Below, in pieces: positions 40,527 through 59,611 of a DNA stretch of 64,000 nt (the first letter of the stretch is position 1; each line of letters begins with the position of its first letter). The stretch is from the NCBI GenBank assembly GCA_963850905.1, contig CAWKMU010000003.1:224001-288000 (forward strand), given 5' to 3'. A program made the position numbers and the translations under genes. The notes under the pieces were generated by a model. It had not been told where the DNA came from, did not search any database, and saw nothing but the letters and a program-made list of their open reading frames with translations. Origin of the DNA: an uncultured Gemmatimonadales bacterium. GTDB taxonomy: Bacteria > Gemmatimonadota > Gemmatimonadetes > Gemmatimonadales > Gemmatimonadaceae.

Positions 40527-40675
40527 CAATTGGGGCGGCGGGGTGACGAACGAAGGCTGCGTTCCCGCCGCCAGCGCGGCTGGACACGGGTCGGCAAGCG
40601 CCGGAGATTAGCGAGAGTCCGCGCCCGCACGACGGGCACCTCGCCCTCCATACGATCCGTCGGAGCATCTCTTCC

Positions 40676-41569
40676 ATGTCACGAATTCGCAGCTGGCTCG
40701 CTGGGTCAGCCACGGTCCTGTTTGCCGTCCTGCACGCCAACGCGGCTGCGCAGCGGCCGCTCAAGGTCTTCCTCTCGGCCGATATGGAGGGCGTAGCAGG
40801 GGTCGTGGCCATGGACCAACTCGGACCCCCGGGACCGGATTACGACTGGGCTCGACATTTGATGACGGCCGAGGTCAACTCCGCCATTACCGCGGCGTTC
40901 GACGCTGGCGCGACGGAAGTGCTCATAAACGATGGCCACGGATCGCACACCAACCTCCGCGCCGATGAGATGGATCAGCGCGCGAGTCTCGTCACGGGGA
41001 CTCCAGCGCCGCTCGGCATGGCGGAAGGGATCGACTCGTCGTTTGGCGCCGTGATCTGCATCGGGTTCCATGCCCGGGCATCGACAGCAGGCGCCGTGAT
41101 CGATCATACCTACACGGGCACCATCACCGACATGACGCTCAATGGCGTGCCGGTTGGAGAGTACGGAATGTCCGCCGCCGTGGCTGGCTACTACGGCGTC
41201 CCCGTCGTGTTCATCTCCGGCGATAGTGCGGTAGCTGAGCAAGCTCGAACATTCATTCCCGGGATCGAAACCGTCACAACGAAGGAGGCGTTCACGCGCT
41301 ACGCCGCGCGGACGATCAGTCCCCAAGCATCGCGTACGGCGATCGCAGCCGGAGTGAAGAAGGCACTTGCACGGCGAACCGAGATCCGCCCGGTCCATGT
41401 GACGACCCCGATCACGCTCGCCGTTGAGTTCACGAATACCGGATACGCCGACAACGTGGCCATGATCCCCGGCGCGCGCCGAACCGGTCCCCGCACGGTG
41501 ACGTACGTCGCTCGGGATATGCCCGAGGCCTACCGCGTGTCACGCTTGATGATGATGCTCGCGCGGTAA
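40676..41569 (+). CDS. M55 family D-aminopeptidase (DppA-like)
   Basis: FLSADMEGVAG, INDGH, GFHA, DHT, ISGD. Confidence 0.93.
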   Translation: MSRIRSWLAGSATVLFAVLHANAAAQRPLKVFLSADMEGVAGVVAMDQLGPPGPDYDWARHLMTAEVNSAITAAFDAGATEVLINDGHGSHTNLRADEMDQRASLVTGTPAPLGMAEGIDSSFGAVICIGFHARASTAGAVIDHTYTGTITDMTLNGVPVGEYGMSAAVAGYYGVPVVFISGDSAVAEQARTFIPGIETVTTKEAFTRYAARTISPQASRTAIAAGVKKALARRTEIRPVHVTTPITLAVEFTNTGYADNVAMIPGARRTGPRTVTYVARDMPEAYRVSRLMMMLAR

Positions 41570-41580
41570 TTTCGCCGCCC

Positions 41581-41652
41581 GCACGGATCGATCCCAACTT
41601 TGCGCCGCTGCACGGCAATCCGCGTTTCGAGCGATTGATCGCGCAGCCGTAA
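41581..41652 (+). pseudogene. 3' remnant of a kinase-TPR gene paralog
   Basis: Translates RIDPNFAPLHGNPRFERLIAQP*, matching RIDPNFASLNGNPRFERLIS at the end of 47242-49920; no start or upstream coding part. Confidence 0.8.
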
Positions 41653-41797
41653 GCGTCACACGCCTGGTCGGATGCGCCGGCGGTTGGCGCTGCCAGCGAG
41701 CGACATTGTCAGCGCGGTCACGGCCGTCTTCGCCGTCACCGCCATCGCGACCGCGGCCGGAAATGGCCGTTTGCGCCCGGCCGATCCTCGGGCGTGG

Positions 41798-43522
41798 TCA
41801 CTGCTTACAGACGCCGTGCGGGTCGGGCTTGGGTTTGTCCACGACCAGCCGGTGGTCGAGATTGGCCTCTTGCATGGCGACGTCGAACACCAGTCGATCC
41901 ACTCGCGCCAGGTGCGCGAAATCGATGTATTGGACCTCATCGGTCACCTGGTGATAGTCCTCGTGAAGACCGGTGGTGAAGAACACGATCGGTATGCCGT
42001 AGCGAGCGTACTCGTAGTGGTCGCTCCGGCAATAGACATTCTCCGGATGGCCGTTTGCGTCCAGCGTGTAGTCGAAGACAAAGGGCTCGGGCTCGGTCTT
42101 GTTGATGCGCTCGACCATGTCCCCGAGCTCGGTCGACAGCCGACGCGACCCGACGAGCATCAGATACCGTGGGCCCCCTCCCTTCCACTCATCGGCCGCA
42201 CCTCGGCCCACCATGTCGAGGTTGAGCTGGCCCACGATGGAGTCGCGTGAGACCGTCGGGTGGTCCGTGTAGTACGTCGATCCGAGCAGACCCTTTTCCT
42301 CAGCGGTGTGCCAAACGAAGAGGATCGACCGCTTCGGCTTGACCGGCGAGTGCGTAAAAGCCTGCGCGATCTCGAGCAGCGACACCGTCCCCGAGCCGTC
42401 GTCGTCGGCCCCGTTGAAGGTCGAGTCGCGGTGCGCAGGCCTGATGCGGTGCAGAGAATCCGTGTTGATATGGATGGTCGCCATCTCCTCCGGCGTCGGT
42501 GCGGGCCCGCTTCCGAGATCCATCATTTTCCAGCGCGCCATGTTCCAGGCTCGAAGCGAATCGGCATCGACGGCGTGTGCAGCCACGCCAAGGTGATCGC
42601 TGTGCGCACCTAACGCCACGTACTCGCCGCGGAGCGACGGATCGGCACCTGGATACACGGCAATGACATTGCGAGCCGGCGCTGTCGGCTGAGCCTCAGT
42701 CACGCGAACGGTCAGGTCGACGGCCACCTGATTCACCACGCCGGGTCGCAGCCCGGCCAGTGGTGCGCCCATGAGTCGCGCCGCTTCGGCCTGGGTCACG
42801 CTGACTCCCACGGGCCGCGGGTCTGGTCCCGTCTCCGCCTGCGGCAGCACCAGCAGCGGACGCCTGGCGGCCTGCAACGCCGGCGCCGTCATCAGATCAA
42901 GCGTGGCGAGAGCGATGGCCGCCGCCCCCGGGTAGTGATCGAGCGCGCCTCGGAATGTCGCGACCGGCCTGCCTCCAGCGCCGAGTGACGCATCGAGCAC
43001 GACGATCCGACCGCTGCTCTGCTCCGGCGTCAGCATCACCGTCGAGTCGCCAAGACGTCCGCCGTACACCGCCGCCGAGACATTCACCGACCCGCTCGGA
43101 CGAACAGGGGATTGGCCGCCCCGCGAGGCGAGCGGCAACCAGTCACGGCCGAAGGCAGCAGCATTCCCACCGACGATCATCGTCGACGTGGTGTCGATCG
43201 AGCGATTGAGCATCACGACGGTCTGGAAATACGTCCCGTTCTCGCCGGCGGGTTTGAGACCGAGTCGTTGAGCGGCACGGGCGATGTAGTCGGTTGCCTT
43301 GACGTTGCCAACGGTCGCCGCCTCGCGACCCAACATCGAATCGTCGGAAAACTGGGAGAGGCGTCGACGAAGGTCGGCGACGCTGATGTCCGGCGTGCTG
43401 GCGGACTGTTGGGTCGGCGTCGACGCGCGTGCTTGGGCGCTTGCCTGAGCACCCGCTTGAGGGACGTAGACGGCGAGAATGACGGCCGCGCCCAGAAGAG
43501 CAGAAGACGATGATCGAGTCAT
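41798..43522 (-). CDS. Exported M28 family metallopeptidase
   Basis: GAHSDH, NGADDDGSG, AEEKGLLGS, LNLDMVG, RSDHY, DYHQVTD. Confidence 0.93.
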   Translation of the reverse strand: MTRSSSSALLGAAVILAVYVPQAGAQASAQARASTPTQQSASTPDISVADLRRRLSQFSDDSMLGREAATVGNVKATDYIARAAQRLGLKPAGENGTYFQTVVMLNRSIDTTSTMIVGGNAAAFGRDWLPLASRGGQSPVRPSGSVNVSAAVYGGRLGDSTVMLTPEQSSGRIVVLDASLGAGGRPVATFRGALDHYPGAAAIALATLDLMTAPALQAARRPLLVLPQAETGPDPRPVGVSVTQAEAARLMGAPLAGLRPGVVNQVAVDLTVRVTEAQPTAPARNVIAVYPGADPSLRGEYVALGAHSDHLGVAAHAVDADSLRAWNMARWKMMDLGSGPAPTPEEMATIHINTDSLHRIRPAHRDSTFNGADDDGSGTVSLLEIAQAFTHSPVKPKRSILFVWHTAEEKGLLGSTYYTDHPTVSRDSIVGQLNLDMVGRGAADEWKGGGPRYLMLVGSRRLSTELGDMVERINKTEPEPFVFDYTLDANGHPENVYCRSDHYEYARYGIPIVFFTTGLHEDYHQVTDEVQYIDFAHLARVDRLVFDVAMQEANLDHRLVVDKPKPDPHGVCKQ

Positions 43523-43604
43523 ATGGGGGAAGGAGTAAGACCGCCGCCGAACATGCCCCCCGGCCTCCCCAACGGCAAGCACAAAGGCTACGGACGGACG
43601 AAGA

Positions 43605-43741
43605 ACCGCCCAGCTCGAGGATTCGCCGCCGCCCAAAGTCGGTTAACTTCGCCGCTTGAGAGTGAGCGGCCGTTGAGAGTCGCGACTGCGCGGCGGAGAA
43701 TCGCCGACCGTCGCCGGCCGCGGGGACACACCTTGGACACC
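43605..43741 (+). repeat. ~140-bp dispersed element, diverged copy
   Basis: cccagctcga..aaagtcgg..ttcgccgctt..agtgagc..gaatcgccgac..tcgccg..gggacacaccttggacacc aligns with the 55339 and 57430 copies. Confidence 0.75.
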
Positions 43742-45208
43742 GTCGAGTTGCGCACCCTGTTGTCATCGGACGCGAATCTCCCCCCCGCCCCGCCAGCGTC
43801 GCGCATCGCCAGCAAGAGCGTGCTGCCATGGCTGATTGCGGTAGCGTTTTTCATGGAATCGCTGGACACGACGATTCTCAATACCGGGGTGCCGACCATC
43901 GCAGCGGCGCTCCATGTCGCTCCGCTCAGCATGAAGTCGGTGCTGGCGAGCTACACCCTGAGCCTCGCAGTCTTCATCCCGATCAGTGGATGGATGGCCG
44001 ATCGGTTCGGAACTCGTCGCGTATTTGCCTCCGCGATCGGCATCTTCACCCTGGGATCATTCCTCTGCGGCATGTCGAGCGACATTCACGCTCTCGTGGC
44101 ATGCCGCATTCTGCAGGGCTGTGGCGGAGCCATGATGGTGCCCGTCGGCCGGCTCACGATCGTGCGGACGTTCGCCAAATCCGAACTGGTTCGCGCCATG
44201 AGCTTCGTCGCCATCCCCGGTTTGGTCGGTCCGATGTTGGGTCCGATCGTCGGCGGTGTGATCGTCGCATACCTGCACTGGCGGCTGCTGTTCTTCGTGA
44301 ACGTTCCGATTGGCCTCTTCGGTCTGTACATGGTCTATCGGCACCTGCCCGACTATCGCGAAGAGCACACCCATCCCCTCGATGTGACCGGGTTGCTGCT
44401 CTTTGGATCCGGTGTCGCACTGCTTTCCTACGTGCTGGAGGTGTTCGGCGAACATACGCTGAGCGCGCCCGAAATTGTGGCAGCCCTGGCCGTGTCCATC
44501 CTCCTTCTGGCCGGCTACGGATTTCACACGATGCGGACGGCATTTCCACTGCTTGATCTCACCCTCTTTCGGATTCGCACCTTTCGCGTGGCCGTGAGTG
44601 GCAGCTTCCTGACCCGCCTCGGCATCGGCGGCATTCCATTTCTCTTTCCCCTGCTGTATCAGGTGGGCCTTGGGTTCACCCCGGTGCAGTCTGGCCTCCT
44701 CATCATGCCGCAGGCCTTCGCGGCCATGAGTCTCAAAACGACAATGCCGCGCATTTTGGCGCGCTTTGGTTACCGTGCCGTCCTGGTCTCGAACACGCTC
44801 CTCATCGGCCTGCAGATCATGCTGTTCGCGACCATTGGGATTGACACGCCAGTATGGTTGATCCTGGCGGAAGTGTTCAGCTATGGATTCTTCACATCGC
44901 TCCAGTATACGAGCATGAACACGCTCGTCTTCGCGGACGTGGACGAAGAACAGGCGAGCCATGCGAGCTCGATCGCCAGTACGATGCAGCAAATGGCCAT
45001 CAGTTTCGGCGTGGCCTCGGCTTCGTTGGTGACAGCGTTCTTCATTCCGGATCGCCACACGTCGAACCCCGCTCAATTCATTCACGGCGTCCAGCGAGCA
45101 TTTCTTGTGCTTGGCGGAATGACCCTGGTCTCCACGATCGTTTTCCGCGAACTGAGGCGAGGCGATGGCGACACGGTCAGCGGGGGCACGGCACTGCACG
45201 CCGGGTAA
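43733..45208 (+). CDS. MFS efflux transporter, DHA2 family
   Basis: FFMESLDTTILN, GWMADRFGTRR, RILQGCGGA, FFVNVPIG; ~14 TM; start uncertain. Confidence 0.93.
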   Translation: MDTVELRTLLSSDANLPPAPPASRIASKSVLPWLIAVAFFMESLDTTILNTGVPTIAAALHVAPLSMKSVLASYTLSLAVFIPISGWMADRFGTRRVFASAIGIFTLGSFLCGMSSDIHALVACRILQGCGGAMMVPVGRLTIVRTFAKSELVRAMSFVAIPGLVGPMLGPIVGGVIVAYLHWRLLFFVNVPIGLFGLYMVYRHLPDYREEHTHPLDVTGLLLFGSGVALLSYVLEVFGEHTLSAPEIVAALAVSILLLAGYGFHTMRTAFPLLDLTLFRIRTFRVAVSGSFLTRLGIGGIPFLFPLLYQVGLGFTPVQSGLLIMPQAFAAMSLKTTMPRILARFGYRAVLVSNTLLIGLQIMLFATIGIDTPVWLILAEVFSYGFFTSLQYTSMNTLVFADVDEEQASHASSIASTMQQMAISFGVASASLVTAFFIPDRHTSNPAQFIHGVQRAFLVLGGMTLVSTIVFRELRRGDGDTVSGGTALHAG

Positions 45209-45267
45209 TGGGTGCGAGCAAAGCAGTCGAGATTCGCAGGCGCGACCATGTAACCACCGAGGTGGAA

Positions 45268-47194
45268 ATGAACGGAACCGTGAAGACGTGGCTCCGCGGA
45301 TTGGGGCTCACCACCGTGGCCATCGTTGTCCTTGGCGCCATCGTGGTGGCCGTCTTGACTGCTCGTGTGCAGCTGCCCGGCGAAGAGCGGGTGCCCGCCG
45401 GCCTCCGTCGCAATCAGGCCGTCTACGTGCAGATGCGCGACGGCGTCCAGATCGCGGTGGACATCTCGGCTGCCGCCGGATCTTCGTGCGAGTGAGCGCG
45501 TGCCGGTGCTGATGCGGACCACGCGCTACTGGCGTGCCAACCAGATCGGCTGGGGCCTTCGCGCGCTGATTGCGCTGCATCGATCTTCTGCAGAAGTGCT
45601 CGATCGGCAAACGGACTACTTCAATATCCGGCGATTCGCGGTGCTCGTGGTGGATGCGCGCGGCAGCGGAGCGAGCGAAGGACTGCGCGTGTCGGAATAT
45701 TCTCCCGATGAAATTGCCGACCTGGGCGAAGTAGCCGGCTGGGCCGCGCGACAGCCCTGGTCGAACGGGCGAGTGGGAGCCTTCGGTGTGTCGTATGACG
45801 GGAACACGGCCGAGCTATCAGCCGTACCGAACAATCCCGTCATCCGTGCGGTGGCGCCGCTCTACGATGACTTCGACACGATGCTGGGTCTCGAACGGCC
45901 CGGTGGCGTCTACGACGTAGGCATGATCCAGAATTGGAGTGACATTGTGGGCGCGATGGACCGCGACAATGTGTGCGGCATCGACAAGCTCACCGGTTGG
46001 GCGTGCTGGTACACACGCCAGCTGGTGCCCGGAGTCAAACCGGTGGACTCTGACAGAGACGGCAAGCACCTCAGAGAAATCGTCTCGCAGCGTCACAATC
46101 CTGCCCTGACGACCAGTCTGGCCGCGACGGAATTCAGCGACGACGCGTTCGAGACCTCGAAAGGGCCCCTGACCCTGGCCCAAATTACGCCGTACGGTTT
46201 GCGGCGGCAGATCGAATCGTCCGGAGTATCGATGCTGGTCTGGTGCGGCTGGCTCGACGCGGGCACGTGTGACGGTTCGCTGAGCCGCTATCGCAATTTC
46301 AAGAACCCGCAGCAAGTGGTAATCGGCGCGTTTTCGCACGGCGGCGGCTACGATGTGGACCCGTTTCTGCCGCTCGACAAGCACCGCCCGCCCAACCCGC
46401 CGCTGGCGGAGCAAATGCGAATGCACGCAGAATTCTTCGACCGGTTGTTGCGCAGCGATCCCCCCGAACCGATCACGCCCGGCGTGCATTACTACACGCT
46501 CGGCGAAGGCCAGTGGCACGACACGGCGGTGTGGCCACCCGTGGGGTTGGAGAATCGCCGGTATTTCTTCGCGGCCGATCATGCGCTTGTTGAGCAGATG
46601 CCGTCACAGGCGCGCGCGACCGATTCGTATACGGTTGATTTTTCAACGACCACAGGTGCGCATAACCGCTGGCAAACGCAGTTGGGCGGGGGCGATGTGA
46701 TCTACCCAGACCGTGCCGAAGAAGACACCAAACTGCTGACGTACACGAGCGCGCCGCTCGAGACGGACGTGGAAATCACCGGTTCGCCGGTCGTGACAAT
46801 CGAGATGGCTTCGACCACAAGCGACGGCGCCGTGTTCGCGTATCTCGAAGACGTCGCCGCAGACGGCCGTGTCACGTACGTTGACGAAGGGATTTTCCGC
46901 GCAATCAACCGCAAGATCGCACCGAAGCCCCTGCCTTACGTGCCGCTCGGCCCCGCGCACAGCTATCTGCGCTCCGACGCGGAACCCATGGTTGCAGGCC
47001 AATCTGCGGAAATTGCGTTCTCGATGTTCCCAACTTCAGTGTTGCTCCACAAGGGACACCGCATCCGCCTGGCGCTCGCCGGCGCCGACGTATCGATGTT
47101 CGAACGGATTCCGGCCAACGCAACGCCAACCTGGACCGTGTATCGCGAAAAAAGCCGGGCGTCTTCTCTTGCAGTCCCTGCGAGAACACGGTGA
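45268..47194 (+). CDS. CocE/NonD (peptidase S15) family hydrolase (frameshift near 45466)
   Basis: MRDGVQIAVD, VDARGSGAS, WSNGRVG, GVSYDG nucleophile, GHRIRLAL. Confidence 0.9.
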
Positions 47195-47210
47195 GCGCTG
47201 ATTCCGTGCG

Positions 47211-47229
47211 AGGTGCATCCTCTGGACAC
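47211..47229 (+). repeat. 19-bp site related to the 140-bp element end
   Basis: aggtgcatcctctggacac; 16/19 identical to 55275-55293. Confidence 0.55.
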
Positions 47230-47241
47230 AGCCAAACGGCG

Positions 47242-49920
47242 TTAAGACGTCGGCGCGGCCGCGCTGACCCTTTTCGAGATCAGTCGCTCGAAGCGCGGGT
47301 TGCCGTTGAGCGACGCGAAGTTGGGATCGATCCGGATCCAGTCCGGAGTGAGGAGGTACGGCTCCTTGAGCAGCACCTCCAACTGGTCGAGTGCTTTCTC
47401 CGGCTCGCCCACCAGCAGGTAGATCCGCACCAATACGTGCTCGTAGTAGCGACGCACGATCGCTCCACCGGGCACCGGCGCCATCGCCACTGCCCGTTGC
47501 CCCTCGGCCACCGCTTCGCCGCGGCGGCCCGCGTAGGCGAACGCGAGGCCGTATTGCGCGTGCACATTTGCGTCGTCGGGACTGGCGCGCAGCGGGGCCG
47601 CGAACGCCAGTCGCGCTGAGTCGCCGTAGGCGTGTGCCCGGAGCCGGTCCCCCCGAAGCGCGAACAGTTGGGCCATGACCAGCGGGAAGTCGTACGGACT
47701 ATTGCCGAAGGCACTTGGGGGCAACGTCTGGACGAGTCTCGTTTGGGCGCTGTCAAGGACCCAGACCAGATCGTCGTACACTGCCAGGTATGCCGCCAGT
47801 GTGGCGGGGTCGATAGTCGGCGACGCCGCCCGAATGATCGCTCGGGCGCCGGGAAGATCCCCGACGGCCAGCTCGACCTCGGCACGAAATTCGACCGCTT
47901 CGAGATCCGTCGGTTGCAGAGCGATCGCATGGTCTAGCGCAGTGCGAGCCTCAGCGAATCGCCGGAGATATAGGTAGGTATTTCCCAGATCGACCGCGAT
48001 TCCAACATCGCGCGGGTCGAGCCGGGCCGACCGCTCGTTGAGCGCGAGGCCCTCGGCCCAACGGCCGGACAGTTTCTCGTAGCTCGCAGCATAGTCGAGG
48101 AGAAGCGCGTTATTGGGTGAGGCTCGGAGCCCAGCATGGACCTCTCCCAGAGCCTGGGGCCAATCACTGCGGACAAGCGCGTAATAGCTCGCCCGCGCAG
48201 CGTGCGCCTCCGGGAGATCTGGCGCCAAGGCGAGCGCCCGCGCCGAAGCCACCCGCGCCGACTCGGCATCGGCCGGGCTGTGTGTACCCGGATCGAAGTC
48301 GTACACGGCCGTGTAGGCCCTGGCGAGCGCAGCCCATGCCTCGGCGAATCCCGAGTCGCGGTGCACCGCCTCTTGGTACCAGTCCAGGGCGCGACGGCTC
48401 GTGCCCGGCGCAAATCCCTTGGCAGTCTCCTGCCCGCGCAAGTATGCGTCGTACGCCTTCAGGTTCGTCGTCGGTTGCTGAACCAGTGCCTGTCGGGCGG
48501 GCGCATTCAACGTGACTTGGAGCTGCTGCGCCACCTTACTCGCGATGTCGGCCTGCACCTGGAACACGTCCGTGAGCGATGCGTCGAACGGCTGCTCCCA
48601 TTTGTCGGCCGCCGTCGAAGCCTCGACCAAGGCCGGGCTGACCTCCACACGCCCCGGTGTCCCAGGTGCTTTGGCCCAACGGACCTTCCCCATCAGGATA
48701 TAACGCACGCTCAATTCTTGGCCGATCTGCTGCGGCGTCTTCGTAGTTTTGCGGTACTGAGCGGAGCTGCCCGGTGCGATCACTTCGAGGCCGGGAACGG
48801 ATGTGAGCTTGCCGCGAATGGCATCGGTCACACCGTCCGCGAAGTAGGCGTCCGTCGTATCGCCCAGATTGTCGAACGGCAGGACGGCCAGTCGCACTGA
48901 CCCGGTGGCCGTGGCCGCGACGCGGTCGGCGAGGGCACGCTGATGCCAGCGCCAGGCGAAGAGGGCGCCAACACCGACGAGGACGCCGAGCGCGAGCACG
49001 GCGACACCCGCTGGGATGCGGTGACGTGAGGCTGGAGCGCTCGGTAAGACAGTCGCCCTCGCTCCAGCAAGCGATGTGCTCGCCCCGCGTTCCGCCGTAT
49101 CGAGCGCGTTGGCGAATGCGGCCGCTGTGGGGAACCGATCGGCCGGCACTGGGGATAGGGCCTTGCGCACGGCGTTGTCCACCGCGTCTGGTACGGACGG
49201 TCGCGTTCGGCGTAGCGAGGGTGGATCGCCGGTCAGCATCTTCGCGGCAACGGCCTGCGCCGTCGGCCCCGTGTACGGAGGTTCCCCGGCCAGCGTCTCG
49301 TACAACACGACACCGAGCGAGTAGACGTCAGTGGCCGCATCGATCTCGCGCTCGCCCGCCGCTTGCTCGGGACTCATGTAGACTGGCGTGCCCAGCGTCA
49401 TCCCGGTGGCCGTCAGCGTGTCGCCGGGTCCGCCAGACATGGTCGGTCGTGCGATGCCGAAGTCGGCCACCATCGCTTGCCCATCGACCAACAGGATGTT
49501 CTCTGGCTTGATGTCGCGATGGATCACCCCGTGGCGGTGCGCGTAGTCGAGCGCCAGAGCAACCTCGCGTGTAATGCGCAGCGCTTCATCGATCGCGAGT
49601 TGGCGCTGCCGGCGCAGCCGGTCTCGGAGCGATTCACCTTCGATGAGCGGCATTGTGAACCACAACGCACCCGACGCCGTCTCACCCGAGTCGTAGACGG
49701 AGACGATGTGCGGGTGTTGCAAGCTGGCAGCGAGCGTGATCTCGCGTCGGAAGCGTTCGGCACCTACGCTGCTCGCGAGCTCGCTCCGCAAGACCTTCAG
49801 CGCGACCCGTCGTCCGTGCTTGGTGTCGCGCGCCACGTAGACCGTCGCCATGCCGCCGCGGCCCAACTCCCCCTCGACCGTATACCCGTCTGGCCCAAAC
49901 CCCTCAGGCACGACCGCCAC
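47242..49920 (-). CDS. Ser/Thr protein kinase with TM, TolB-N-like and TPR domains
   Basis: GRGGMATV, VALK, HRDIKPEN, DFG, YMSPE; LAVLPFDNLG; TPR repeats. Confidence 0.95.
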   Translation of the reverse strand: MAVVPEGFGPDGYTVEGELGRGGMATVYVARDTKHGRRVALKVLRSELASSVGAERFRREITLAASLQHPHIVSVYDSGETASGALWFTMPLIEGESLRDRLRRQRQLAIDEALRITREVALALDYAHRHGVIHRDIKPENILLVDGQAMVADFGIARPTMSGGPGDTLTATGMTLGTPVYMSPEQAAGEREIDAATDVYSLGVVLYETLAGEPPYTGPTAQAVAAKMLTGDPPSLRRTRPSVPDAVDNAVRKALSPVPADRFPTAAAFANALDTAERGASTSLAGARATVLPSAPASRHRIPAGVAVLALGVLVGVGALFAWRWHQRALADRVAATATGSVRLAVLPFDNLGDTTDAYFADGVTDAIRGKLTSVPGLEVIAPGSSAQYRKTTKTPQQIGQELSVRYILMGKVRWAKAPGTPGRVEVSPALVEASTAADKWEQPFDASLTDVFQVQADIASKVAQQLQVTLNAPARQALVQQPTTNLKAYDAYLRGQETAKGFAPGTSRRALDWYQEAVHRDSGFAEAWAALARAYTAVYDFDPGTHSPADAESARVASARALALAPDLPEAHAARASYYALVRSDWPQALGEVHAGLRASPNNALLLDYAASYEKLSGRWAEGLALNERSARLDPRDVGIAVDLGNTYLYLRRFAEARTALDHAIALQPTDLEAVEFRAEVELAVGDLPGARAIIRAASPTIDPATLAAYLAVYDDLVWVLDSAQTRLVQTLPPSAFGNSPYDFPLVMAQLFALRGDRLRAHAYGDSARLAFAAPLRASPDDANVHAQYGLAFAYAGRRGEAVAEGQRAVAMAPVPGGAIVRRYYEHVLVRIYLLVGEPEKALDQLEVLLKEPYLLTPDWIRIDPNFASLNGNPRFERLISKRVSAAAPTS

Positions 49921-50160
49921 GCGAGCCCGCCACGTTGGAGAATGGCTCGAAGCTATTAGGCCGGGGCGTCCCGCAGTAGCACCATTTCAGCCCTTCCTCG
50001 TCCCTCATAGCCGCGGCCTATCGGCCCACCACAAAGAACGTATTGGAATTCCGATGGCGCCCCCCTGAGTATTCACCCATGGCCGTTCCGTGGTTGCGAC
50101 GAGGCACGATCCGCCCTGACACTCGTCCGCAACGCCGTGCCATCCCTTCGGAGCTGCACC

Positions 50161-50610
50161 ATGGCCGACCCAATGCTGTCGCGTCGAATCTTCCTCGTGA
50201 ATGGCCTTGTAGCGGGCGTTGGCGCGCTCCTGGGCGCGGCCCCCGTTCGCGGCCATCGTGGCTGCGCGCTGCATCACACGCAGGACGTTGATCACGGGCC
50301 GCATCCCACACCTCGGCCTGGGATTGACGCCTCGCACGTGCTCAAGCCCGAGCAGTTGAAAGACGCCCCTAACGCGGTCACAGCCTTCAACGAGGTACGC
50401 CAGATCCCCCAAGTAGTCGACGGGATTCGGTGTCATTGTGGCTGCGCCCGGGAGAAGGGCTTCTATTCGCTCTTGAGTTGCTACGAGAGCGACGGCATGG
50501 CACGAGACTGCCACATCTGCCAGGGCCAAGGTCGTATGGCGTTTCGACTGCACAGTGCCGGCAAGTCATTGACGGAAATCAGGGACGCGATCGACGCCAA
50601 GTACGACTGA
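50161..50610 (+). CDS. PCYCGC-motif-like protein with Tat signal
   Basis: SRRIFL; CHCGC...SLLSCY...CHIC...IRDAIDAKY. Confidence 0.8.
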   Translation: MADPMLSRRIFLVNGLVAGVGALLGAAPVRGHRGCALHHTQDVDHGPHPTPRPGIDASHVLKPEQLKDAPNAVTAFNEVRQIPQVVDGIRCHCGCAREKGFYSLLSCYESDGMARDCHICQGQGRMAFRLHSAGKSLTEIRDAIDAKYD

Positions 50611-50653
50611 GATCTACGTCACGTAAGTCATCGATCTTCATTCGAGGCCCAAC

Positions 50654-51598
50654 ATGCAAGTCACCATCCCCGGCGTGGTGGTGGTCATCGCGATGGTCGG
50701 AATCGTGCCACGCGCCCACGCACAGACCTCACAAGGGCTCAACGCAAGCGAGCCGGCAAGCATCTCGCAGATCGTCGATGGTACGAAGATCACGATCGAG
50801 TACTCACGGCCCCGCGCGCGCGGGCGAACGGGTTTGTTCGGCACCGAGGTGAAGTTCGGCCAGACCTGGACGCCGGGTGCGAATCAGTCGACGACGCTTG
50901 CCGTTACCAAGGATGTGTCAATCGACGGACATCCGGTTGCCAAAGGAAAGTATTCCGTCTGGATGGTTGTCGCGCCTGGAGACTGGGAGTTGGTGCTCGA
51001 CCACGACACAACGCTATTCCACATGGCGCACCCAAAGTCTCGGCCCGGTCAGATTCGCTTCGTGGTACCGAAAGAGCACCATGACTTCGTGGAAGTACTC
51101 ACCTGGTCGTTCCCAAAGGTCACAACGACCGGGATGACGCTCACGATGCAGTGGGACACGGTGTCCGTTCCCCTCGACATTAGGGTCATGCCCACCTTCA
51201 CCACTGCTGTCCCGCCGGACGCTGCTGAGTGTGTGGCGGGCGCCTACCACTGGCACTGGTCGCCCCGCATGGCGGACCCGTATGTCCCGAAGGACACCAC
51301 GCTTCCGCGCTACCCGGGGATGAAGAGCGCCGAGGCGACGTTCACTGTCCGCTACGTCGGAGGCGAGCTACGCGCGACCGTCGATCCGCCGATGTTCAGC
51401 GATCCCGCCTTGCGCGAATTCGTGCTGATCCAGAAGAAAGGCGATTTGTACGACTTTGGGCGCGTCGATCGCGGGGAGTTGGTCGAAGTCTGGGACTACG
51501 TCGCCCTGCAGTTCGCGGTCGCGAACGGGCACGCAGACAGCCTCGAGGCTCGCGGCACGGACGACGAACTATGGGCGACTGGGAAGAGGAAGCCCTGA
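50654..51598 (+). CDS. DUF2911 domain exported protein
   Basis: ITIEYSRP..RGR, WTPGAN, GKYS. Confidence 0.85.
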   Translation: MQVTIPGVVVVIAMVGIVPRAHAQTSQGLNASEPASISQIVDGTKITIEYSRPRARGRTGLFGTEVKFGQTWTPGANQSTTLAVTKDVSIDGHPVAKGKYSVWMVVAPGDWELVLDHDTTLFHMAHPKSRPGQIRFVVPKEHHDFVEVLTWSFPKVTTTGMTLTMQWDTVSVPLDIRVMPTFTTAVPPDAAECVAGAYHWHWSPRMADPYVPKDTTLPRYPGMKSAEATFTVRYVGGELRATVDPPMFSDPALREFVLIQKKGDLYDFGRVDRGELVEVWDYVALQFAVANGHADSLEARGTDDELWATGKRKP

Positions 51599-51651
51599 CC
51601 ACCGCGACTGGCCCTGACGTCGCGGCAATGACTCGACCAGGAGGATGTGCG

Positions 51652-52456
51652 ATGACTGAGGATCCATTCCTGGAGTTCAAGCGAAAGCAGCGTGAGGCGT
51701 GGGCGACGTTCGCGCCGGCAGCGACGTTCACAACACGCGTGGCGGCCCACCTCGTCGGTTTTGCCGGAGTCAAGATCGGCGAGTCGGTGCTCGATGTGGC
51801 CACCGGCACCGGCGTCGTCGCGGTGACAGCGGCGCGAGCGGGGGCTCGCGTCAGCGCACTCGACCTGACGCCCGAGCTCCTCGCCGAAGCTCGTGAAAAC
51901 GGCAGGATCGCCGAACACCCGGAGATCGCGTGGCAAGAAGCCGATGCGGAGAAACTGCCCTACCCCGATGCATCCTTCGACGTCGTGGTCAGTCAGTTTG
52001 GCCACATGTTCGCGCCGCGTCCGGAGGTCGTCGTTGCCGAGATGCGTCGCGTGCTGAAGCCCACCGGACGAGTCGCCTTTGCGACTTGGCCACCTGAGCA
52101 TTCTTGTCGGTCGGATGTTCATGCTCGTGGGCCGCAACTCACCCCCTCCGCCTCCGGGGGTTATCCCGCCCCCACTCTGGGGAAGCCCCACGATCATCGC
52201 TGAGCGCCTCGCCGTTGGGTTCCGCGAGCCATTCTTCGAGCGCGGCGCGATGATGGCCCCAGCGTTGAGCATCCCTCACTACAGGCGCTTCATGGAGGCA
52301 ACCATCGGCCCCGTGCAAAAGCTGGTCGACAATCTTTCGACCGCGCCTGACCGGCTCGCAGCTTTCCGCGGCGAGTTTGACGCCCTCGTCACGCCCTACT
52401 ACGGGGAGAACCAGGTCCAGCAGAGCTACCTGCTAACGCGTGCCCACGCGCGCTGA
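51652..52456 (+). CDS. Class I SAM-dependent methyltransferase (frameshift near 52100)
   Basis: VLDVATGTG, DAEKLPY, FDVVVSQFGHMF, RVLKPTG. Confidence 0.9.
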
Positions 52457-52549
52457 GGTCGGAGCGGACAGCGGCGACGGGGTCGAAACGCACGGAGCGC
52501 TTGGAGTTGGCATGGCGCGCCGTTCTCTCGTGTGGATGGCGGACACCGG

Positions 52550-54988
52550 CTAGTCCTGCCGTAACGCTCTAACCGGATCGATGCGACTCGCCCACCGCGC
52601 TGGTAGGAAGCTCGCCGCCAGCGCCGCGGCGACGAGTAACGCGACCACCGGGACCACGGTTGCCAGCTCCATTGACTGCATGCCGACGACGACCTTGAGC
52701 AGCACGCGACCGGCAAGGAGGGCCGCGGCGAGGCCTAGTGCGGTGCCCATTGCAATCAGCCGCATGCTGTCCCGAAGAATGAAGCGGACCACACCGCCTG
52801 TCGTGGCGCCCAGCGCGAGCCGCACGCCGATCTCCTGAACGCGTTGCGTCGTGAGGTAGGAGAGGACACCGTAGATCCCCACGCAGGCGAGGAGCATCGC
52901 GACTGCAGCAAAGGTGCCGAACAACAGCATTAGGAAACGCTGTTGATCGAGCGAAGCGCGCACGACGTCATCCATCGTCTGGATGTCGTACATCGCCTGA
53001 TAGGATCCGGGACCGCCGAACGCCGACTGTAACGGACGGATAGCGGCCGCCGGTGCGGTTGTCGTGCGCACGGCGATCGATAGGAACGTGGAGTAGAGGT
53101 GCACGAGCGACGCCGGCACCTGGGCGAACGGATAATAGAGCTGATCGTGTACGGGCGACGCATTGTCGTTCGCCAGGCCCCAATGGCGCACATGCCCGAC
53201 GACGCCGACTACACGCGATGGGTCGCGACCCATTGCCGGCAGCCAGAGGCGCTGACCTACGGGATCCGTGTCCCCAAAGGCATGGCGCGCGAGATTGGCA
53301 TTGATGACCACCACCGGTTCGGTGCCGAGGCTGTCGGCATCCGTGAAGAACCGGCCCTTCAACAGCGGGATTCCCATGACCGCCCGATAGTCCGGCGTCA
53401 CACTCGACGCGAGCGCGTCTGGCTCCTGGTCCGGCGGCGGGGCCGTCGGCGTCGTCCAATACGACACCGTGTTCTCGCCTTCCCGCATGGGAATGATGTC
53501 CGCCAGAGCGACGCCGCGAACACCGGCCACGGCGCGCGCCCGCCCGACGACCTGACGCCACGCCGCGCGTATCTCTTGGGGATCGCCCAAGGCACTCGGC
53601 GCGAGCGCGAAGCGCGCGACCAGCACGTGGTGGGGATCGATCCCGGGATCGCGCGCCGATTGCGCGATCAACGTTCGGCCGAGCATGCCGGCCGACACCA
53701 GCAACACGATCGCCAGCGCCAACTCGGCCACCACGAACGCCCCGTGCATCCGCCGCGTGTTGGCCGTTGTCCCGCGCCCCGATGCGCGCAGCGTACGCCC
53801 GAGATCGCGGACGCTGGCGCGGAGCGCCGGCGCCAGCCCCGCCAAAATGCCCGTGGCCAGCGACACTGCGAGCGCGAACACTAGCGCGCGCCAGTCGAGT
53901 CGAATCTCTTGAGCTCGCGGCAGCCCGCCCGGCCACAGCGCGACGAAAGGCCGGACACCGGCCGCGGCCAGGATCGCGCCCATTGCGCCGCCAGCCACGC
54001 CGAGGACGGCGCTCTCGGTCATGCATTGTCGCGCGATGCGACCGCGGTTGGCGCCCAAAGCGGTGCGGAGCGCTAGCTCATGACCGCGGGCAACGGCGCG
54101 AGCCAAGAGCAGACTGGCGATGTTCACGCACGCGATGAGCAAGACGAGCGACACCGCGGCGAGCAGCAGCCACAGCGTCGAACCGATCTTTCCGACGACC
54201 TCGTCGCGCAGCGGGTGTGCAACTATACCAGCCCCTGCGTTCGTCGCGGGGTACTGCGCCGCCAACTGGCGACCGGTGAGCGCCAGCTCGGCTCTCGCCT
54301 GGGCCAGCGTGATGCCCGGTCGCAGTCGGCCGAGCGCGTGAATAAAGCGCGCGCCACGAATGTGCAGACGCGGATCGGTGGTCTGGCCGAGTGGCGTGAA
54401 GACGTCCGCTTGTCCCGTAAGCTCGAACGCAGCGGGCAGCACGCCGATCACGACATAGGTGACACCGTCATAGCTGAGGGAGCCGCCGATTGCCGAACGA
54501 CTCCCGCCGAAATGCCGGTGCCACAGCACATCGCTGATAATGGCGACGGGTGTTGCGCCGGGGCGATCGTCGTCGCCGCGGAATGCGCGTCCCTGCTCGG
54601 GCTGAAGGCCAAGGACCGGGAGGAGGTTCGCCGACAGCAGGCGGCCCGATACGTATTCGGCCGGCCCGCTGCCGGTGATCGTACCGCCGCCGTAGGTCCA
54701 CGCAGCTATATCGAGCGTGCGACTCATTCGGGTCAGGTCCTGGATGTCGGGATACGAATATCCCCACACCTCGCCGACGTCCTGTGTAGAGGTCCGGAGC
54801 GCCACGAGGCGATCTGACGCCGGGAACGGCAGCCGTCGCAAAAGAACGCCGTCGACGATAGTGAACATGACGGTGGCGGCGCTGATGCCGAGCGCCAAAA
54901 TGAGCAGCGCCACCGCCGCGAATCCCGGCCGCTGCCTCAGGGCGCGGAGCGCGTGCCGGATGTCTTGCGCGATGTCATCGAGTAGCAT
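52550..54988 (-). CDS. ADOP-type duplicated ABC permease (MacB/FtsX-like)
   Basis: LALGISA, LLIACVNIASLL, EIGVRLALGA, IDPVRALR; no adjacent ATPase. Confidence 0.92.
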   Translation of the reverse strand: MLLDDIAQDIRHALRALRQRPGFAAVALLILALGISAATVMFTIVDGVLLRRLPFPASDRLVALRTSTQDVGEVWGYSYPDIQDLTRMSRTLDIAAWTYGGGTITGSGPAEYVSGRLLSANLLPVLGLQPEQGRAFRGDDDRPGATPVAIISDVLWHRHFGGSRSAIGGSLSYDGVTYVVIGVLPAAFELTGQADVFTPLGQTTDPRLHIRGARFIHALGRLRPGITLAQARAELALTGRQLAAQYPATNAGAGIVAHPLRDEVVGKIGSTLWLLLAAVSLVLLIACVNIASLLLARAVARGHELALRTALGANRGRIARQCMTESAVLGVAGGAMGAILAAAGVRPFVALWPGGLPRAQEIRLDWRALVFALAVSLATGILAGLAPALRASVRDLGRTLRASGRGTTANTRRMHGAFVVAELALAIVLLVSAGMLGRTLIAQSARDPGIDPHHVLVARFALAPSALGDPQEIRAAWRQVVGRARAVAGVRGVALADIIPMREGENTVSYWTTPTAPPPDQEPDALASSVTPDYRAVMGIPLLKGRFFTDADSLGTEPVVVINANLARHAFGDTDPVGQRLWLPAMGRDPSRVVGVVGHVRHWGLANDNASPVHDQLYYPFAQVPASLVHLYSTFLSIAVRTTTAPAAAIRPLQSAFGGPGSYQAMYDIQTMDDVVRASLDQQRFLMLLFGTFAAVAMLLACVGIYGVLSYLTTQRVQEIGVRLALGATTGGVVRFILRDSMRLIAMGTALGLAAALLAGRVLLKVVVGMQSMELATVVPVVALLVAAALAASFLPARWASRIDPVRALRQD

Positions 54989-55274
54989 GATGAGCCCCCG
55001 TTTGCCAAAACCGGGCCAACCTTGCTCACCAGGTAACGCGTTGATCGGCCAGGTGTTGCGCGTGGGACCCCTCGGACCGCGTGTCCGTTTGCGGTCGGCG
55101 GCGTCCCGGAACCGCGCATCGGGCGCGCACCGTCTGCCGCCCGAGGGCGCTCGTGTCGTGTATCAAAGGGACACCGGCCTTTCAGAGCACCTCATCCAGA
55201 CGATCGGCGTCATGAAGCAGAGCAATCAGTTTGCAATACCCAAGGGGTGCTCAAAGCGGTCGAAAACGCCGCCT

Positions 55275-55293
55275 AGGCGCACACTCTGGACAC
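55275..55293 (+). repeat. 19-bp site related to the 140-bp element end
   Basis: aggcgcacactctggacac. Confidence 0.6.
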
Positions 55294-55338
55294 GCCCCAA
55301 TCGCAAGCGGCCGGCGAAGCAACAACTCAGGCCGATGC

Positions 55339-55480
55339 TCAGACTTCCTAGTTCGACGTCAGGCCAGCACCCGAAGTCGGCGAAGTTCGCCGCTTCATAG
55401 TGAGCAATCGCCGACTCCAGCCGACTTTTGTCGCGAAATCACCGACTACCGCCGGTCTTGGGACACACTTTGGACACACC
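55339..55480 (+). repeat. ~140-bp dispersed element
   Basis: Direct repeat of 57430-57573, long identical blocks. Confidence 0.93.
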
Positions 55481-55585
55481 CTAACCTGGGCGGTTGTGAC
55501 TGCTCCTGTCCTGCGGATTGCGCACCGCCCGATGCCGCCCGATGTCGCGTCAGATTGTCCCCCGAATGGTGACCGGACGGCGTTG

Positions 55586-57103
55586 CTACACCCCTGCGGG
55601 CATCAGCTTTTCAACGACCTCGTCGATGCTGAAGCTGGCCGGCCGTTGTCGGATCGGGAACTCCTTCAGAGATTCCAGCCACTTGCTGACAAGGACTTGG
55701 GCCGGAACCATGAGGAAGCTGCGGTCGGCGAACCACTTGTCATAGAATAGCGTGCTGTCCTCGCCGGCTTCGAACGGATCGGACCGCAGATTGAAGATCT
55801 TGGGGATTCGCATCTGTGAGAACGGCTCACGCCAGACCGAAAGTCCTCGGGCGCGCTGCTCAGAGAAAACGACCTTCCAATCCCGCGCACGCACTGCGAG
55901 CAAGTCCCCGTCGTCGCTCCAGTAGAGGAATCCCTCGCGGGGCGATGTCTTCTCGTCGCCTTTGAGGAACGGCACGAGGTTGTAGCCATCGAGGTGCACT
56001 TTGAACGTCCTGCCGTCGGCGGCGTAGCCTTTCTTGACCTTCTCCACGAGCTCGGGCTCGCCGGCCGCCGCTGCGAAGGTCGGGATCATATCCTGCAGCG
56101 AACAGATATCGTTGATCACCCGTCCTGGCTCGATCATGCCCGGCCAGCGCATCACGCAGGGGATGCGCCAGCCACCGTCCCCCTGAGTGTCCTTTTCGCC
56201 GCGGAAGGGCGACGCGCCCCCGTCAGGCCAGGACATCTTTTCCGCGCCGTTGTCAGTGGTGAACACGACGATCGTATTGTCGGCGACGCCAAGATCATCG
56301 AGCGTCTTGAGCAACTGTCCGACGTAACCGTCCAGCTCCACCATGCCGTCGGGGTACAGGCCTAGGCCGGTCTTTCCCACCGACGCCGGCTTGAGATGAG
56401 TAAACACGTGCATGCGGGTCGGATTGAAATAACAGAACCAGGGCCTGCCCTCCTTGGTCTTGCGACCCATGAAGTCCACAGCAGCCGCGAGGAATTCCTC
56501 GTCGACGGTTTCCATCCGCTTTGTGTTCAGCGGTCCGGTGTTCTCGATTACTTGCTTGCCTACTTTACCGAACTGCGGATCGACGGTGGGGTCATCCCTG
56601 TCTGTCGCCTTACACCGCAATACTCCACGAGGGCCAAATCGCTTCCGGAAGGCAGGATCCTTGGGATAGTCTGGATTCTCGGGTTCTTGTTCGGCGTTCA
56701 AGTGATACAGGTTGCCGAAGAACTCATCGAAGCCATGCACGGTCGGCAGGAACTCGTTGCGGTCACCCAAGTGGTTCTTGCCGAACTGACCTGTCGCGTA
56801 GCCGAGCTGCCTCATGAACTGGGCGACGGTGGGATCGTCCGCGCTCAACCCGACAGTCGCTCCGGGAAGACCCACTTTCGTGAGTCCCGTGCGGATTGGC
56901 GATTGTCCGGTGATGAACGCGGCGCGGCCCGCTGTGCAGCTCTGCTGGCCGTAGAAGTCCGTGAACAGCGCCCCTTCCTTCGCGATCCGATCGATGTTCG
57001 GCGTTCGATACCCCATGATCCCGAGATTGTAGGCGCTGACGTTGAACCAGCCAATGTCGTCAGCCATGATGAACAGGACGTTCGGCTTTTTCTGGGCCGC
57101 CAC
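55586..57103 (-). CDS. Arylsulfatase (Cys-type formylglycine sulfatase)
   Basis: PNVLFIMADD, CTAGRAAFITG (CxAxR), GKNHLG, TTDNG, GEK. Confidence 0.95.
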   Translation of the reverse strand: MAAQKKPNVLFIMADDIGWFNVSAYNLGIMGYRTPNIDRIAKEGALFTDFYGQQSCTAGRAAFITGQSPIRTGLTKVGLPGATVGLSADDPTVAQFMRQLGYATGQFGKNHLGDRNEFLPTVHGFDEFFGNLYHLNAEQEPENPDYPKDPAFRKRFGPRGVLRCKATDRDDPTVDPQFGKVGKQVIENTGPLNTKRMETVDEEFLAAAVDFMGRKTKEGRPWFCYFNPTRMHVFTHLKPASVGKTGLGLYPDGMVELDGYVGQLLKTLDDLGVADNTIVVFTTDNGAEKMSWPDGGASPFRGEKDTQGDGGWRIPCVMRWPGMIEPGRVINDICSLQDMIPTFAAAAGEPELVEKVKKGYAADGRTFKVHLDGYNLVPFLKGDEKTSPREGFLYWSDDGDLLAVRARDWKVVFSEQRARGLSVWREPFSQMRIPKIFNLRSDPFEAGEDSTLFYDKWFADRSFLMVPAQVLVSKWLESLKEFPIRQRPASFSIDEVVEKLMPAGV

Positions 57104-57429
57104 GGTATCCCCCTGAGTGAATTAGACCGCACTCAGACGATACGGCGACCGTGCGCGTACTCAATTGGACCAATGTCTACATATGGCAGACCCCTGCTTG
57201 GGAACCGCAGGCGCGGCCCTTGGTGGCCGCCGCGCGCACCGAGCGTCGAGCGCACCACGCGCGCGTTCATCAGCGATGGCAAGGGGCTAATGGCTGAACA
57301 TCTTAGCCTTAGTCCTATGCGTCGACGACCACAGGACCAGCATCGGCCAATCGCCCGCGCCACCAGCGTCGTTGGTTATGTGGTCCACGTCATCGCTGCC
57401 AACGGCCGAGACTGAGCCGAGCTCGTTTT

Positions 57430-57573
57430 TCAAACTTCCCAGTTCGACGTGTCGCCGGATTGCAAAGTCGGCGATGTTCGCCGCTTTCATAGTGAGCAAT
57501 CGCCGACACCAGCCGACTATTTTCGCGAAATCGCCGACTATCGCCGATGTCCGGGACACACTTTGGACACACC
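57430..57573 (+). repeat. ~140-bp dispersed element
   Basis: tcaaacttcccagttcgacgt...catagtgagcaatcgccgac...gggacacactttggacacacc. Confidence 0.93.
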
Positions 57574-57736: not shown

Positions 57737-58180
57737 CTATGGTCGGGCCGTTACTTCCGGGCGGTCCGATTGAGCAGTGACCCGTTGCCGCAAGCGCCCT
57801 GCATTGGCCATTGCCGGTCCCACGATGGGCTTCCCGGCACGGTATAGGCCGATGCGCGCAACCCAGAATAGCACGGTGCCAACGACAATCAGCGCGGCTG
57901 CGATGAGGCCGAGGGGACCTAATCCTGTGAGCTCCTGCTGCAGCGTGCCCTCGCGTGGACCGTTTACGGCTGCGATGGCGAGCTGAATCGCGAGGATGGT
58001 CCCGAAAACCCACTCCCGCCACCACTTCGCAACGTGGTGTGAAAAACGCGGATGCCGATCGGCCCAGGCGTCAAATGTAAAACCTACTCTACGGAGCCCG
58101 ATACCTAGGACGCCCAGCCCAACGATCCCAAGCCAAGCCAGGAAGATGACTGATCCAAGCCACAGGACGAGATGAGTCAT
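57737..58180 (-). CDS. Hypothetical membrane protein
   Basis: Three hydrophobic segments; GAGGA upstream of ATG. Confidence 0.6.
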   Translation of the reverse strand: MTHLVLWLGSVIFLAWLGIVGLGVLGIGLRRVGFTFDAWADRHPRFSHHVAKWWREWVFGTILAIQLAIAAVNGPREGTLQQELTGLGPLGLIAAALIVVGTVLFWVARIGLYRAGKPIVGPAMANAGRLRQRVTAQSDRPEVTARP

Positions 58181-58285
58181 GCGATCCTCGAGTAGTGCTG
58201 CTTACGCGGTGCGGGCGCGTCGACATCCGCCCAAGTCACACCCCGTTGAGACGTAATCGCCACACTTTGCTTGTCGGCTTGGACA

Positions 58286-58996
58286 TCACGCCTGCCCGGA
58301 TTTCGGGTACGAGACCACGGACCGTCGCGAACGCGTGCCCATGATCAGGTCCCAGAGTGGTGACGTCACGCCATAGTCACGATCGGGATCGGTAAAGTGG
58401 TGTCGGTAATGGCGCCACTTGGTGTATCGGCCGAGCGCCGTGCGCATGCGTCGATGATGCACCGCATAGTGCACAGTGTCGTACACGAGATAGCCACCAA
58501 CGAATCCGGCAAACACCGACCCCCACAGATGCGTGCCGACGACGGCGCGAAACAGCAGGGCGAATAGGAACGCGAGTGGGACGCTCGCCCCGGGCGGTAT
58601 GACTAACCGCGATGAATCGCTCGGATACTCGTGATGCACACCATGCATGATGAAATACACGATGTGGCGCCACCCTGGCAGGTTGGGAATGGCAGCCTCG
58701 CCAGGCATGAGTCGGCCGACAACATCATGCGTTTCGCTCATGATGGCGTCAGGGGCGTGGAACAGATGCCTGTGCAGCACATATTCGACGGCGGTCCACA
58801 AGAGCAGTCCCGCCCCCACCAGCCCCGCGTCCAAGAGGGGCGGCGTCGGTGACCACCACAGCAGACCGGCAATCACAGGCACATAAATGAGATGCGGAAT
58901 CGCGGGGTGCACCCGGGTCATCCGTTCCAGCCAGTCCTGACGAAACATCCGAACCGACTCGTCCCGCGCAGAGACGAAATGTGGATTCACAGTCAT
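58286..58996 (-). CDS. Fatty acid hydroxylase / sterol desaturase family (FA2H-like)
   Basis: His boxes EYVLHRHLFH, HGVHH, HYAVHH, HYRHH; YGVTSPLWD. Confidence 0.93.
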   Translation of the reverse strand: MTVNPHFVSARDESVRMFRQDWLERMTRVHPAIPHLIYVPVIAGLLWWSPTPPLLDAGLVGAGLLLWTAVEYVLHRHLFHAPDAIMSETHDVVGRLMPGEAAIPNLPGWRHIVYFIMHGVHHEYPSDSSRLVIPPGASVPLAFLFALLFRAVVGTHLWGSVFAGFVGGYLVYDTVHYAVHHRRMRTALGRYTKWRHYRHHFTDPDRDYGVTSPLWDLIMGTRSRRSVVSYPKSGQA

Positions 58997-59029
58997 GCGC
59001 CTCACCTCACGCGAACGGGTTGTCCCATA

Positions 59030-59164
59030 TCAGCCTTCCCCCGGCATTGCGGTTGCGACGAGCACCGCGGTCACAATTAAGACGGTAGTTGCGAGCACGA
59101 GTTCCAGCGCAGCACTCCGATACGTCAACAGGGTGCGTGCCAACGGGTGCCTCCCCGAACGCAT
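59030..59164 (-). pseudogene. Probable CopD C-terminal remnant
   Basis: 44 aa ending RSAALELVLATTVLIVTAVLVATAMPGEG, directly after copC. Confidence 0.6.
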
Positions 59165-59173
59165 GACGAGCTG

Positions 59174-59611
59174 TTACCGGCCGCCTGCAACGACAAAGGC
59201 GATGGCGCCCGACGCAGGGTGACCATCCGTCGCGGCCGTTTTCCATGCGATCGTGTAGGTGCCGGGCACCACGTGTCCTGTAACGTCCGCCACGATGGGC
59301 GAGTGTGGCGCGCCGTCGCGGTGCACGGCGGACACCGTTATCGGCATTGTGCTGGCCCCCATGGACATGCTCAGCCCAACGGAGGTGATCGCGAGCTCCG
59401 GGTCTTCACTAAACCACAGCTTGATCGCCGCGGGCGGCGCACGCAGCGTGTCATTGTTAGCCGGTTCGGACTTGACGAGGTGCACGTGCCACAGGCCAGC
59501 GGGCGGAACCCCGGCCGTCGCTTGGTGACGGGTAGTGGCGGCGGCGAACACCGTGACAAGCGCCAGGATACCGGCAGCGCGCACAGTCGACGGAATCGGA
59601 TGAGCGAACAT
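59174..59611 (-). CDS. copC: Copper resistance protein CopC
   Basis: Signal peptide; HVHLVKSEP, LWFSE, YTIAWK...DGH. Confidence 0.9.
   Translation of the reverse strand: MFAHPIPSTVRAAGILALVTVFAAATTRHQATAGVPPAGLWHVHLVKSEPANNDTLRAPPAAIKLWFSEDPELAITSVGLSMSMGASTMPITVSAVHRDGAPHSPIVADVTGHVVPGTYTIAWKTAATDGHPASGAIAFVVAGGR

Follow-up and report, generated by a model that had tools for sequence, protein, structure and literature searches.

The window, that is, the whole 64,000-nucleotide stretch analyzed, contains three co-oriented repeats of ∼142 bp, all within 14 kb, and they border cargo genes of diverse predicted function (Table 1). The three copies and the sequence motifs named in the original prediction were confirmed, and the ends of the copies were slightly refined to the coordinates of Table 1. 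Copies 2 and 3 are identical at 122 of 144 positions (84.7%, against the ∼85% estimated by eye; BLASTN E 2e-38 when scored against the whole genome), and copy 1 is diverged, as had been stated (92/144 identical positions with copy 2 and 94/145 with copy 3). A search of the 4.49-Mb genome for further copies, by BLASTN and with a profile built with the three window copies themselves, returned only these three full repeats, and the next match had an E value of 0.47. A fourth, core-only copy (60364–60378), which coincides with the 3′-end of a GNAT acetyltransferase gene, and a second arm-type repeat to the left of copy 2 had been overlooked. Wherever a copy keeps both parts, core and arm are spaced by 118–120 nt. 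Contigs from public sequencing runs, which may derive from the source sample, span the repeat copies and revealed no differences in the pieces listed.

Table 1. Features of the GNAT-end locus (window coordinates).
Feature	Position	Strand	Description
Junction 1, outermost recognisable attR	43602–43743	+	Degenerate core 43606–43620, P arm, tandem arm-type repeat 43724–43740
Module A cargo	43744–55211		MFS transporter, S15 (CocE-like) peptidase, Ser/Thr kinase-TPR, PCYCGC, DUF2911, methyltransferase, ABC permease (Pfam)
Integrase 3′ tail, decayed	55212–55330	+	Carries one frameshift and one internal stop, and has lost its stop codon
P′-side arm-type tandem repeat	55277–55293	+	Within the integrase tail, reads HTLDT
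Junction 2, attP-like	55339–55480	+	Displaced stop 55339–55341, core 55343–55357, P arm, repeat 55461–55477
Module B cargo	55586–57103	-	Arylsulfatase (Pfam)
Junction 3	57430–57573	+	Displaced stop 57430–57432, perfect core 57434–57448, P arm, repeat 57554–57570
Module C cargo	57737–59923		147-aa ORF, fatty-acid hydroxylase, 258-aa ORF
attL	60360–60378	-	Core + stop codon (60360–60362) of the regenerated GNAT end (…WSNWEV-stop)
Target gene, GNAT acetyltransferase	60360–61338	-	Conserved, single-copy, downstream of an SbcC/Rad50-like gene

Copy 1 had been noted to precede a pair of MFS and CocE genes. Both genes are present, but copy 1 actually borders an 11.7-kb module of seven genes (module A), in which a profile search detected no integrase. 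The kinase of this module is shared (89.5%) with a module of a relative, G001. For the arylsulfatase of module B, a search of 9 genus genomes returned paralogues of 68–73% and nothing closer. In G002, MFS, M28 and S15 genes are located outside the only att site found in that genome.

On the minus strand, the last codons and the stop codon of the GNAT gene (…SNWEV-stop) form the end of both copy 2 and copy 3. The identity to the GNAT gene stops at the edge of the core, and element-specific arm DNA starts there. The target in its regenerated form and the fragment displaced from it are co-oriented and lie at the island ends, a signature that is known from tDNA islands (PMC4383910). Of 151 family genomes, 146 yielded the GNAT gene (a count that includes the unpublished G016, G066, G067 and G165), with a single match in all but one. 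Its C-terminus reads SNWE(V/I)-stop in 33 of the 34 loci read in relatives, and the remaining locus (G007) is frameshifted, like the gene of the window. The apparent frameshift of the latter, near 60477, probably arose in the assembly, as the extra base is missing from one run contig.

Synteny with G004 (∼91% identity) covers window positions 41797–43610 and 60360–64000, with other DNA between them in G004. The left break is copy 1 (43610) and the right break is the end of the GNAT gene (60360), which places the repeats at breakpoints of gene presence or absence, as had been proposed. In many family members the folE, SDR and acyl-CoA ligase genes, which here are located at 23–27 kb of the window, closely follow the GNAT gene, so that ∼33 kb were added at this hotspot here. 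The older half of the ∼33-kb insertion has no recognisable sites, and the hotspot extends beyond the att scars.

In the relative G179, an HTH gene precedes a 428-aa ORF (P0003) that is convergent with the GNAT end. The G179 element is split over two contigs, with attR near the start of the second, and its arm repeat is divergent. P0003 matched a PHROG integrase (E 1.9e-20), and its score against PF00589 was 16.3 bits, under the cut-off of 27.1. Residues R238, K287, H360, R363, W384 and Y394 do not vary among the 95 aligned homologues, which were chosen from the 119 found; we take them to be the catalytic set of a tyrosine recombinase, with Trp presumably occupying the second His/Trp position, unlike in lambda Int. 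The structure model of P0003 (pLDDT 91.6) has a beta-sheet plus helix at N-terminal residues 10–72, and its best Foldseek match was lambda Int (1z1b, E 8.7e-9), aligned over full-length lambda Int. The N-terminal domain gave a weak match to Pfam Arm-DNA-bind_3 (E 0.41), and a sequence search of the PDB gave no match.

A search for this integrase clade in 401 genomes gave matches in 115, a count that takes in the unpublished G066, G165 and G323; we inspected the 30 best loci and a few more. The integrase adjoins the GNAT end in four relatives: complete in G179, cut by the contig end in G263, N-truncated within a complete 3.2-kb attR–attL element in G348, and reduced to a C-terminal piece in G014. 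In G179, G263 and G014 its stop codon is 8 nt from that of the GNAT gene. Across relatives the decay is graded, from a full integrase to a truncated one, to the tail only, to none. The GGACAC tandem repeat lies within the last codons of many clade members (an HxxDT-like tail, by a loose pattern, in 32 of 119 proteins), which puts the P′ arm inside the coding tail. A tree of 24 rows groups the integrases at protein-coding targets into one supported clade of 15 (100/99), together with three others; the four GNAT-adjacent integrases, three of which are short fragments, form no resolved clade of their own. We found no published description of this integrase clade. The link between integrase and GNAT gene is one of adjacency, in four genomes. 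An integrase fragment beside an att site of the metagenomic stretch L056 was considered and rejected as cognate: its clade occurs at a tRNA fragment, presumably of tRNA-Gln.

Screens with PF00589 detected no integrase in or near the window or the GNAT gene, but they cannot exclude a member of this clade, since P0003 itself scores below the cut-off. The segment 55212–55330 is in register with the intact integrase tails: a conserved MK…YQ region is followed by the arm-type repeat and an 8-nt spacer, so that 8 nt separate the end of the segment from the displaced stop codon, the same distance as for intact integrases. Compared with those tails it shows a gap of one base, is interrupted by an internal stop and has lost the stop codon. 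It is the top match of the tail profile (E 1.8e-4 in the window and 0.013 in the genome). Its pairwise score exceeded all 300 random segments for just 1 of 11 tails and tblastn did not detect it, hence much of the weight is carried by its position. One run contig covers the remnant, with no differences. Judged from sequence, arm-type repeats flank the junction 2 core on both sides, as expected between tandem islands. Junction 2 is the only place within the window where the P′ side is recognisable, and a tail-profile search found no integrase tail to the left of junction 3. Among left flanks 2 of 34 matched the tail profile, and the P′ side is mostly unrecognisable. Profile and clade-specific searches detected no integrase of this clade in the genome (the assembly is 82% complete). 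A recombinase encoded elsewhere, as originally proposed, is not supported by these results: the integrase was carried on the islands, as seen in the four relatives and in the tail of the window, and the genome yielded no clade member.

Of 34 GNAT loci of up to 20 kb, 5 carry full or partial copies of the repeat downstream of the gene (G001, G002, G004, G026 and G105), as do G120 and G348. A metagenome scan gave 8 stretches with copies, of which L056 and L059 are the same sequence and L058 repeats L012. The GNAT gene is located 1.9 kb from the copy of L055; L056 and L061 have two sites each, and L062 has three. Arrays of 2–3 sites recur in the window, G001, L012, L056, L061 and L062. When modules were mapped from att to att, an approach that favours short ones, 17 of 18 had no integrase fragment by profile, with a median size of 2.4 kb (range 0.5–11.7). 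A sequence-only model run on 151 genomes matched, at E ≤ 1.4e-5, 17 places distributed over 12 genomes, some of them by construction; at E ≤ 0.01 it matched in 65 of 151 genomes, mostly noise, and the 17 strong places and six weaker ones were examined. Places with a GNAT-type core are located close to a GNAT gene or on contigs that are short or broken (G009, G179 and G069). Places lacking that core have the same arm beside other gene ends, including a tRNA-Ser fragment and one unidentified end; the others we take to be the 3′-end of ychF, the 5′-end of panD and the 3′-end of a reductase gene. In pneumococcal work ychF is reportedly mentioned together with attB. Viral contigs had no att pattern and no GNAT match.

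From the observed identity of the target, the breakpoints, the position of the integrase in relatives and the remnant in the window, with no intact copy in the assembly, we conclude that the repeats are very probably attR-type junctions of small tyrosine-integrase islands accreted in tandem in the end of the GNAT gene. This supports the original prediction in so far as it took the copies for att sites, with tandem arm-type repeats of a tyrosine integrase, that repeated integration left behind. A lambda-type integrase would recombine the element circle (attP, consisting of P arm, core and P′ arm) with attB, the last six codons of the conserved GNAT gene. The element would bring a replacement gene end, and the original end would be displaced to the far junction, beside the ∼120-bp P arm. 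Later elements would insert at the regenerated gene end and push older ones outward, and the resulting order would be GNAT end, module C, junction 3, module B, junction 2, module A and junction 1. Deletions would then strip the integrase and regulators, with the cargo staying between att scars. The integrase is predicted to bind the GGACAC repeats, and the crossover overlap would be 6 bp (TTCCCA) between imperfect inverted repeats. This presumed overlap appears altered in junctions 1 and 2 (one change in the junction 2 core), which may have fixed modules A and B in place, and both would be immobile at present.

An alternative that we consider unlikely is that integrase-less units of 0.5–4 kb with intact P arms are moved in trans by a visiting integrase, much as integron cassettes are. 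This is compatible with the same origin and adds ongoing mobility. The small size of the mapped modules (17 of 18 fully mapped without integrase, median 2.4 kb), the good preservation of P arms and the recurrence of arrays of 2–3 sites would agree with it, but the mapping is biased to short modules and the P′ arms are mostly lost. Against it, the cores of junctions 1 and 2 are changed in the presumed overlap; in its favour, the presumed overlaps at both ends of module C are identical. A second copy of module C (82–87% identity; contig C4, 28428–32406), with no integrase and no arm, is located near an integrase at tRNA-Ser, and its homology stops at the gene-side edge of a degenerate core. That it ends exactly at the core is a hint of mobility, but it is a single case, lacks an arm and lies beside IS3 genes. 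The neighbours of this copy we assume to be IS3-like genes and a relaxase-like ORF. No cargo was seen to recur in another order between att sites. Contigs of four out of 11 public runs yielded no recombination joint at any att site, although at their shallow depth (∼2–6) they cannot show absence. The copy of the hydroxylase block in G004 lacks a core and is therefore uninformative on mobility. A dedicated integrase-less cassette system, as first envisaged, was not demonstrated, and the integrase came on the islands themselves. It is unlikely, though suggested by the copy of module C that ends exactly at the core, that the Gemmatimonadaceae have integron-like arrays at the GNAT end whose integrase-less units of 0.5–4 kb, each with an intact P arm, are excised and relocated in trans by a visiting integrase of the undescribed clade, with its protein-coding gene ends as targets and P′ in its own tail.

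Local duplications, or attC-like sites unrelated to an integrase, would account for the lack of an integrase in the window and for the single genes between some repeats; this is very improbable, since the repeats contain element-specific arm DNA that the GNAT gene lacks, the integrase remnant lies in register, there is no conserved hairpin, and integrase-bearing elements occur in relatives. The conclusion of the original prediction that the repeats are not integron attC sites is borne out, with 0 compensatory pairs, only short stems, and no PF00589 match in or near the window. Also very improbable is the structured ncRNA or MITE that had been offered as an alternative: a short invariant inverted repeat exists and the fold of copy 3 is better than that of its shuffles (z -3.65 and -3.26), but this does not hold for copies 1 and 2 (z -0.2 to -1.1), the consensus fold of 16 copies has 10 predicted pairs with 0 compensatory changes, no Rfam match reached the gathering score in the window, only three copies exist, all in 14 kb, no terminal inverted repeat is among the 25 longest listed, and the left end is a gene end. 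Neither the covariation nor the Rfam check proposed at the outset supports an RNA family.

Accretion of decayed tyrosine-integrase islands, the reading we favour, is a known process, and a three-step scheme with CIMEs has been published (PMC5704250). The CIMEs related to ICESt1/ICESt3 of Streptococcus thermophilus likewise integrate site-specifically at a gene 3′-end, lose their integration genes, keep their att sites and receive later elements in tandem (PMC5704250); phylum, target gene and integrase clade differ here, and the units are very small. Moreover, by Pfam the cargo of the window modules has no conjugation genes, cores and P arms are kept while the P′ side is usually gone, and cis-mobilisation is putative. 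Islander tyrosine-integrase islands share the regenerated target, the direct displaced fragment at the ends and the tandem arrays (PMC4383910). In contrast to them, the target here is protein-coding, modules lack an integrase, and the G179 integrase scores 16.3 bits against a PF00589 cut-off of 27.1. With a non-tRNA target and integrase-less modules, such arrays would fail the tDNA and integrase filters of Islander.

In lambda, a short core lies between the two arms of a large attP, and attR carries the P arm (PMC4111918); the GNAT-end system is similar in its two-armed attP and, by the structure model, in its three-domain integrase fold. Sequence identity to lambda Int is 15%, the P′ repeat lies inside the integrase coding tail, and, unlike in lambda, there are no phage genes here and no match in viral contigs. 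Integron cassette arrays consist of one- or two-gene units parted by co-oriented recombination sites, and small units between co-oriented sites are found here as well. In contrast to integrons, the junctions are double-stranded core and arm DNA rather than folded attC hairpins, each opens with a displaced gene end, and the cargo is in either orientation; for IntI/attI, no PF00589 match was found in or near the window. Xer/dif (pdif) modules have a 28-bp XerC/XerD site consensus; the core of the repeats described here is the end of a coding gene.

We found no published description of the GNAT gene end as an integration target, although island databases or supplements may list it, and a literature search gave nothing on integrase, attB and genomic island in Gemmatimonadota. 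These data map an integration hotspot and its integrase to the base in a poorly studied soil phylum. Standard island finders would miss such loci: the integrase can miss the Pfam cut-off, the target is not a tRNA gene, and most units are enzyme-less. Since attB is a conserved gene end that is restored by integration, it is a candidate neutral landing site for genetics in the family. If integrase-less units do move in trans, they would represent a second route to cassette-like gene arrays.

To the left of junction 1, the first att copy in the window, ∼16 kb more genes lie between the junction and the genes that adjoin the GNAT gene at the family level. No recognisable att sites were detected in this segment, which probably represents older accretions (stacked island insertions). 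The extra bases found in the window are likely assembly indel errors.

Integrases of the clade that converges on the GNAT end, or the att arm, were also observed at other protein-coding targets (L164, L165, L168, L169, L172, L215, L218 and L219), which we take to be the panD start, the ychF end and the end of a reductase gene; the locus in G028 is a minimal element of 2.6 kb. In L056, three DUF3466-like genes lie in tandem, the first between two att copies; the trio is preceded on its left by an HTH gene, together with an integrase that is truncated and falls in a different clade from the GNAT-end integrases. Additional cores and a gene-end duplication were observed, and other repeats are present in the window.

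Coordinates of the features
Feature	Location	Remarks
Extra bases	window 45467, 59803, 60477	one each, compared with run contigs
Genes beyond junction 1	window 27300-43600	peptidases, amidohydrolases, OPT transporter
Minimal element	L165 (G028:C62) 896-3569	excisionase-like HTH, integrase with one stop
Locus of the DUF3466-like genes	L056 8244-13689	
GNAT 3′ end duplicate	L042 (G008) 2869	longer length, without arm
Second core	L035 (G002) near 18300	∼50 bp from GNAT gene end
Core	G000 C2:3134	one mismatch, without arm
Module C, second copy, with its neighbours	G000 C4:28428-42678	
REP-like palindrome	window 19103-19767	111-bp repeat period
Scattered palindrome copies	window 6460, 20287, 31504, 34387	
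7-bp-unit arrays	window 2221-2258, 7997-8151, 25010-25103, 27615-27764	intergenic; some are inverted pairs flanking a short spacer

Outside the window, on contig C4 of the same genome, module C (the cargo between junction 3 and the GNAT end) is present again and ends at an att core. An integrase at tRNA-Ser lies near this copy, and its neighbours are presumably IS3-like genes and a relaxase-like ORF. It is possible that the copy on C4 reflects capture of module C by a mobilisable element.
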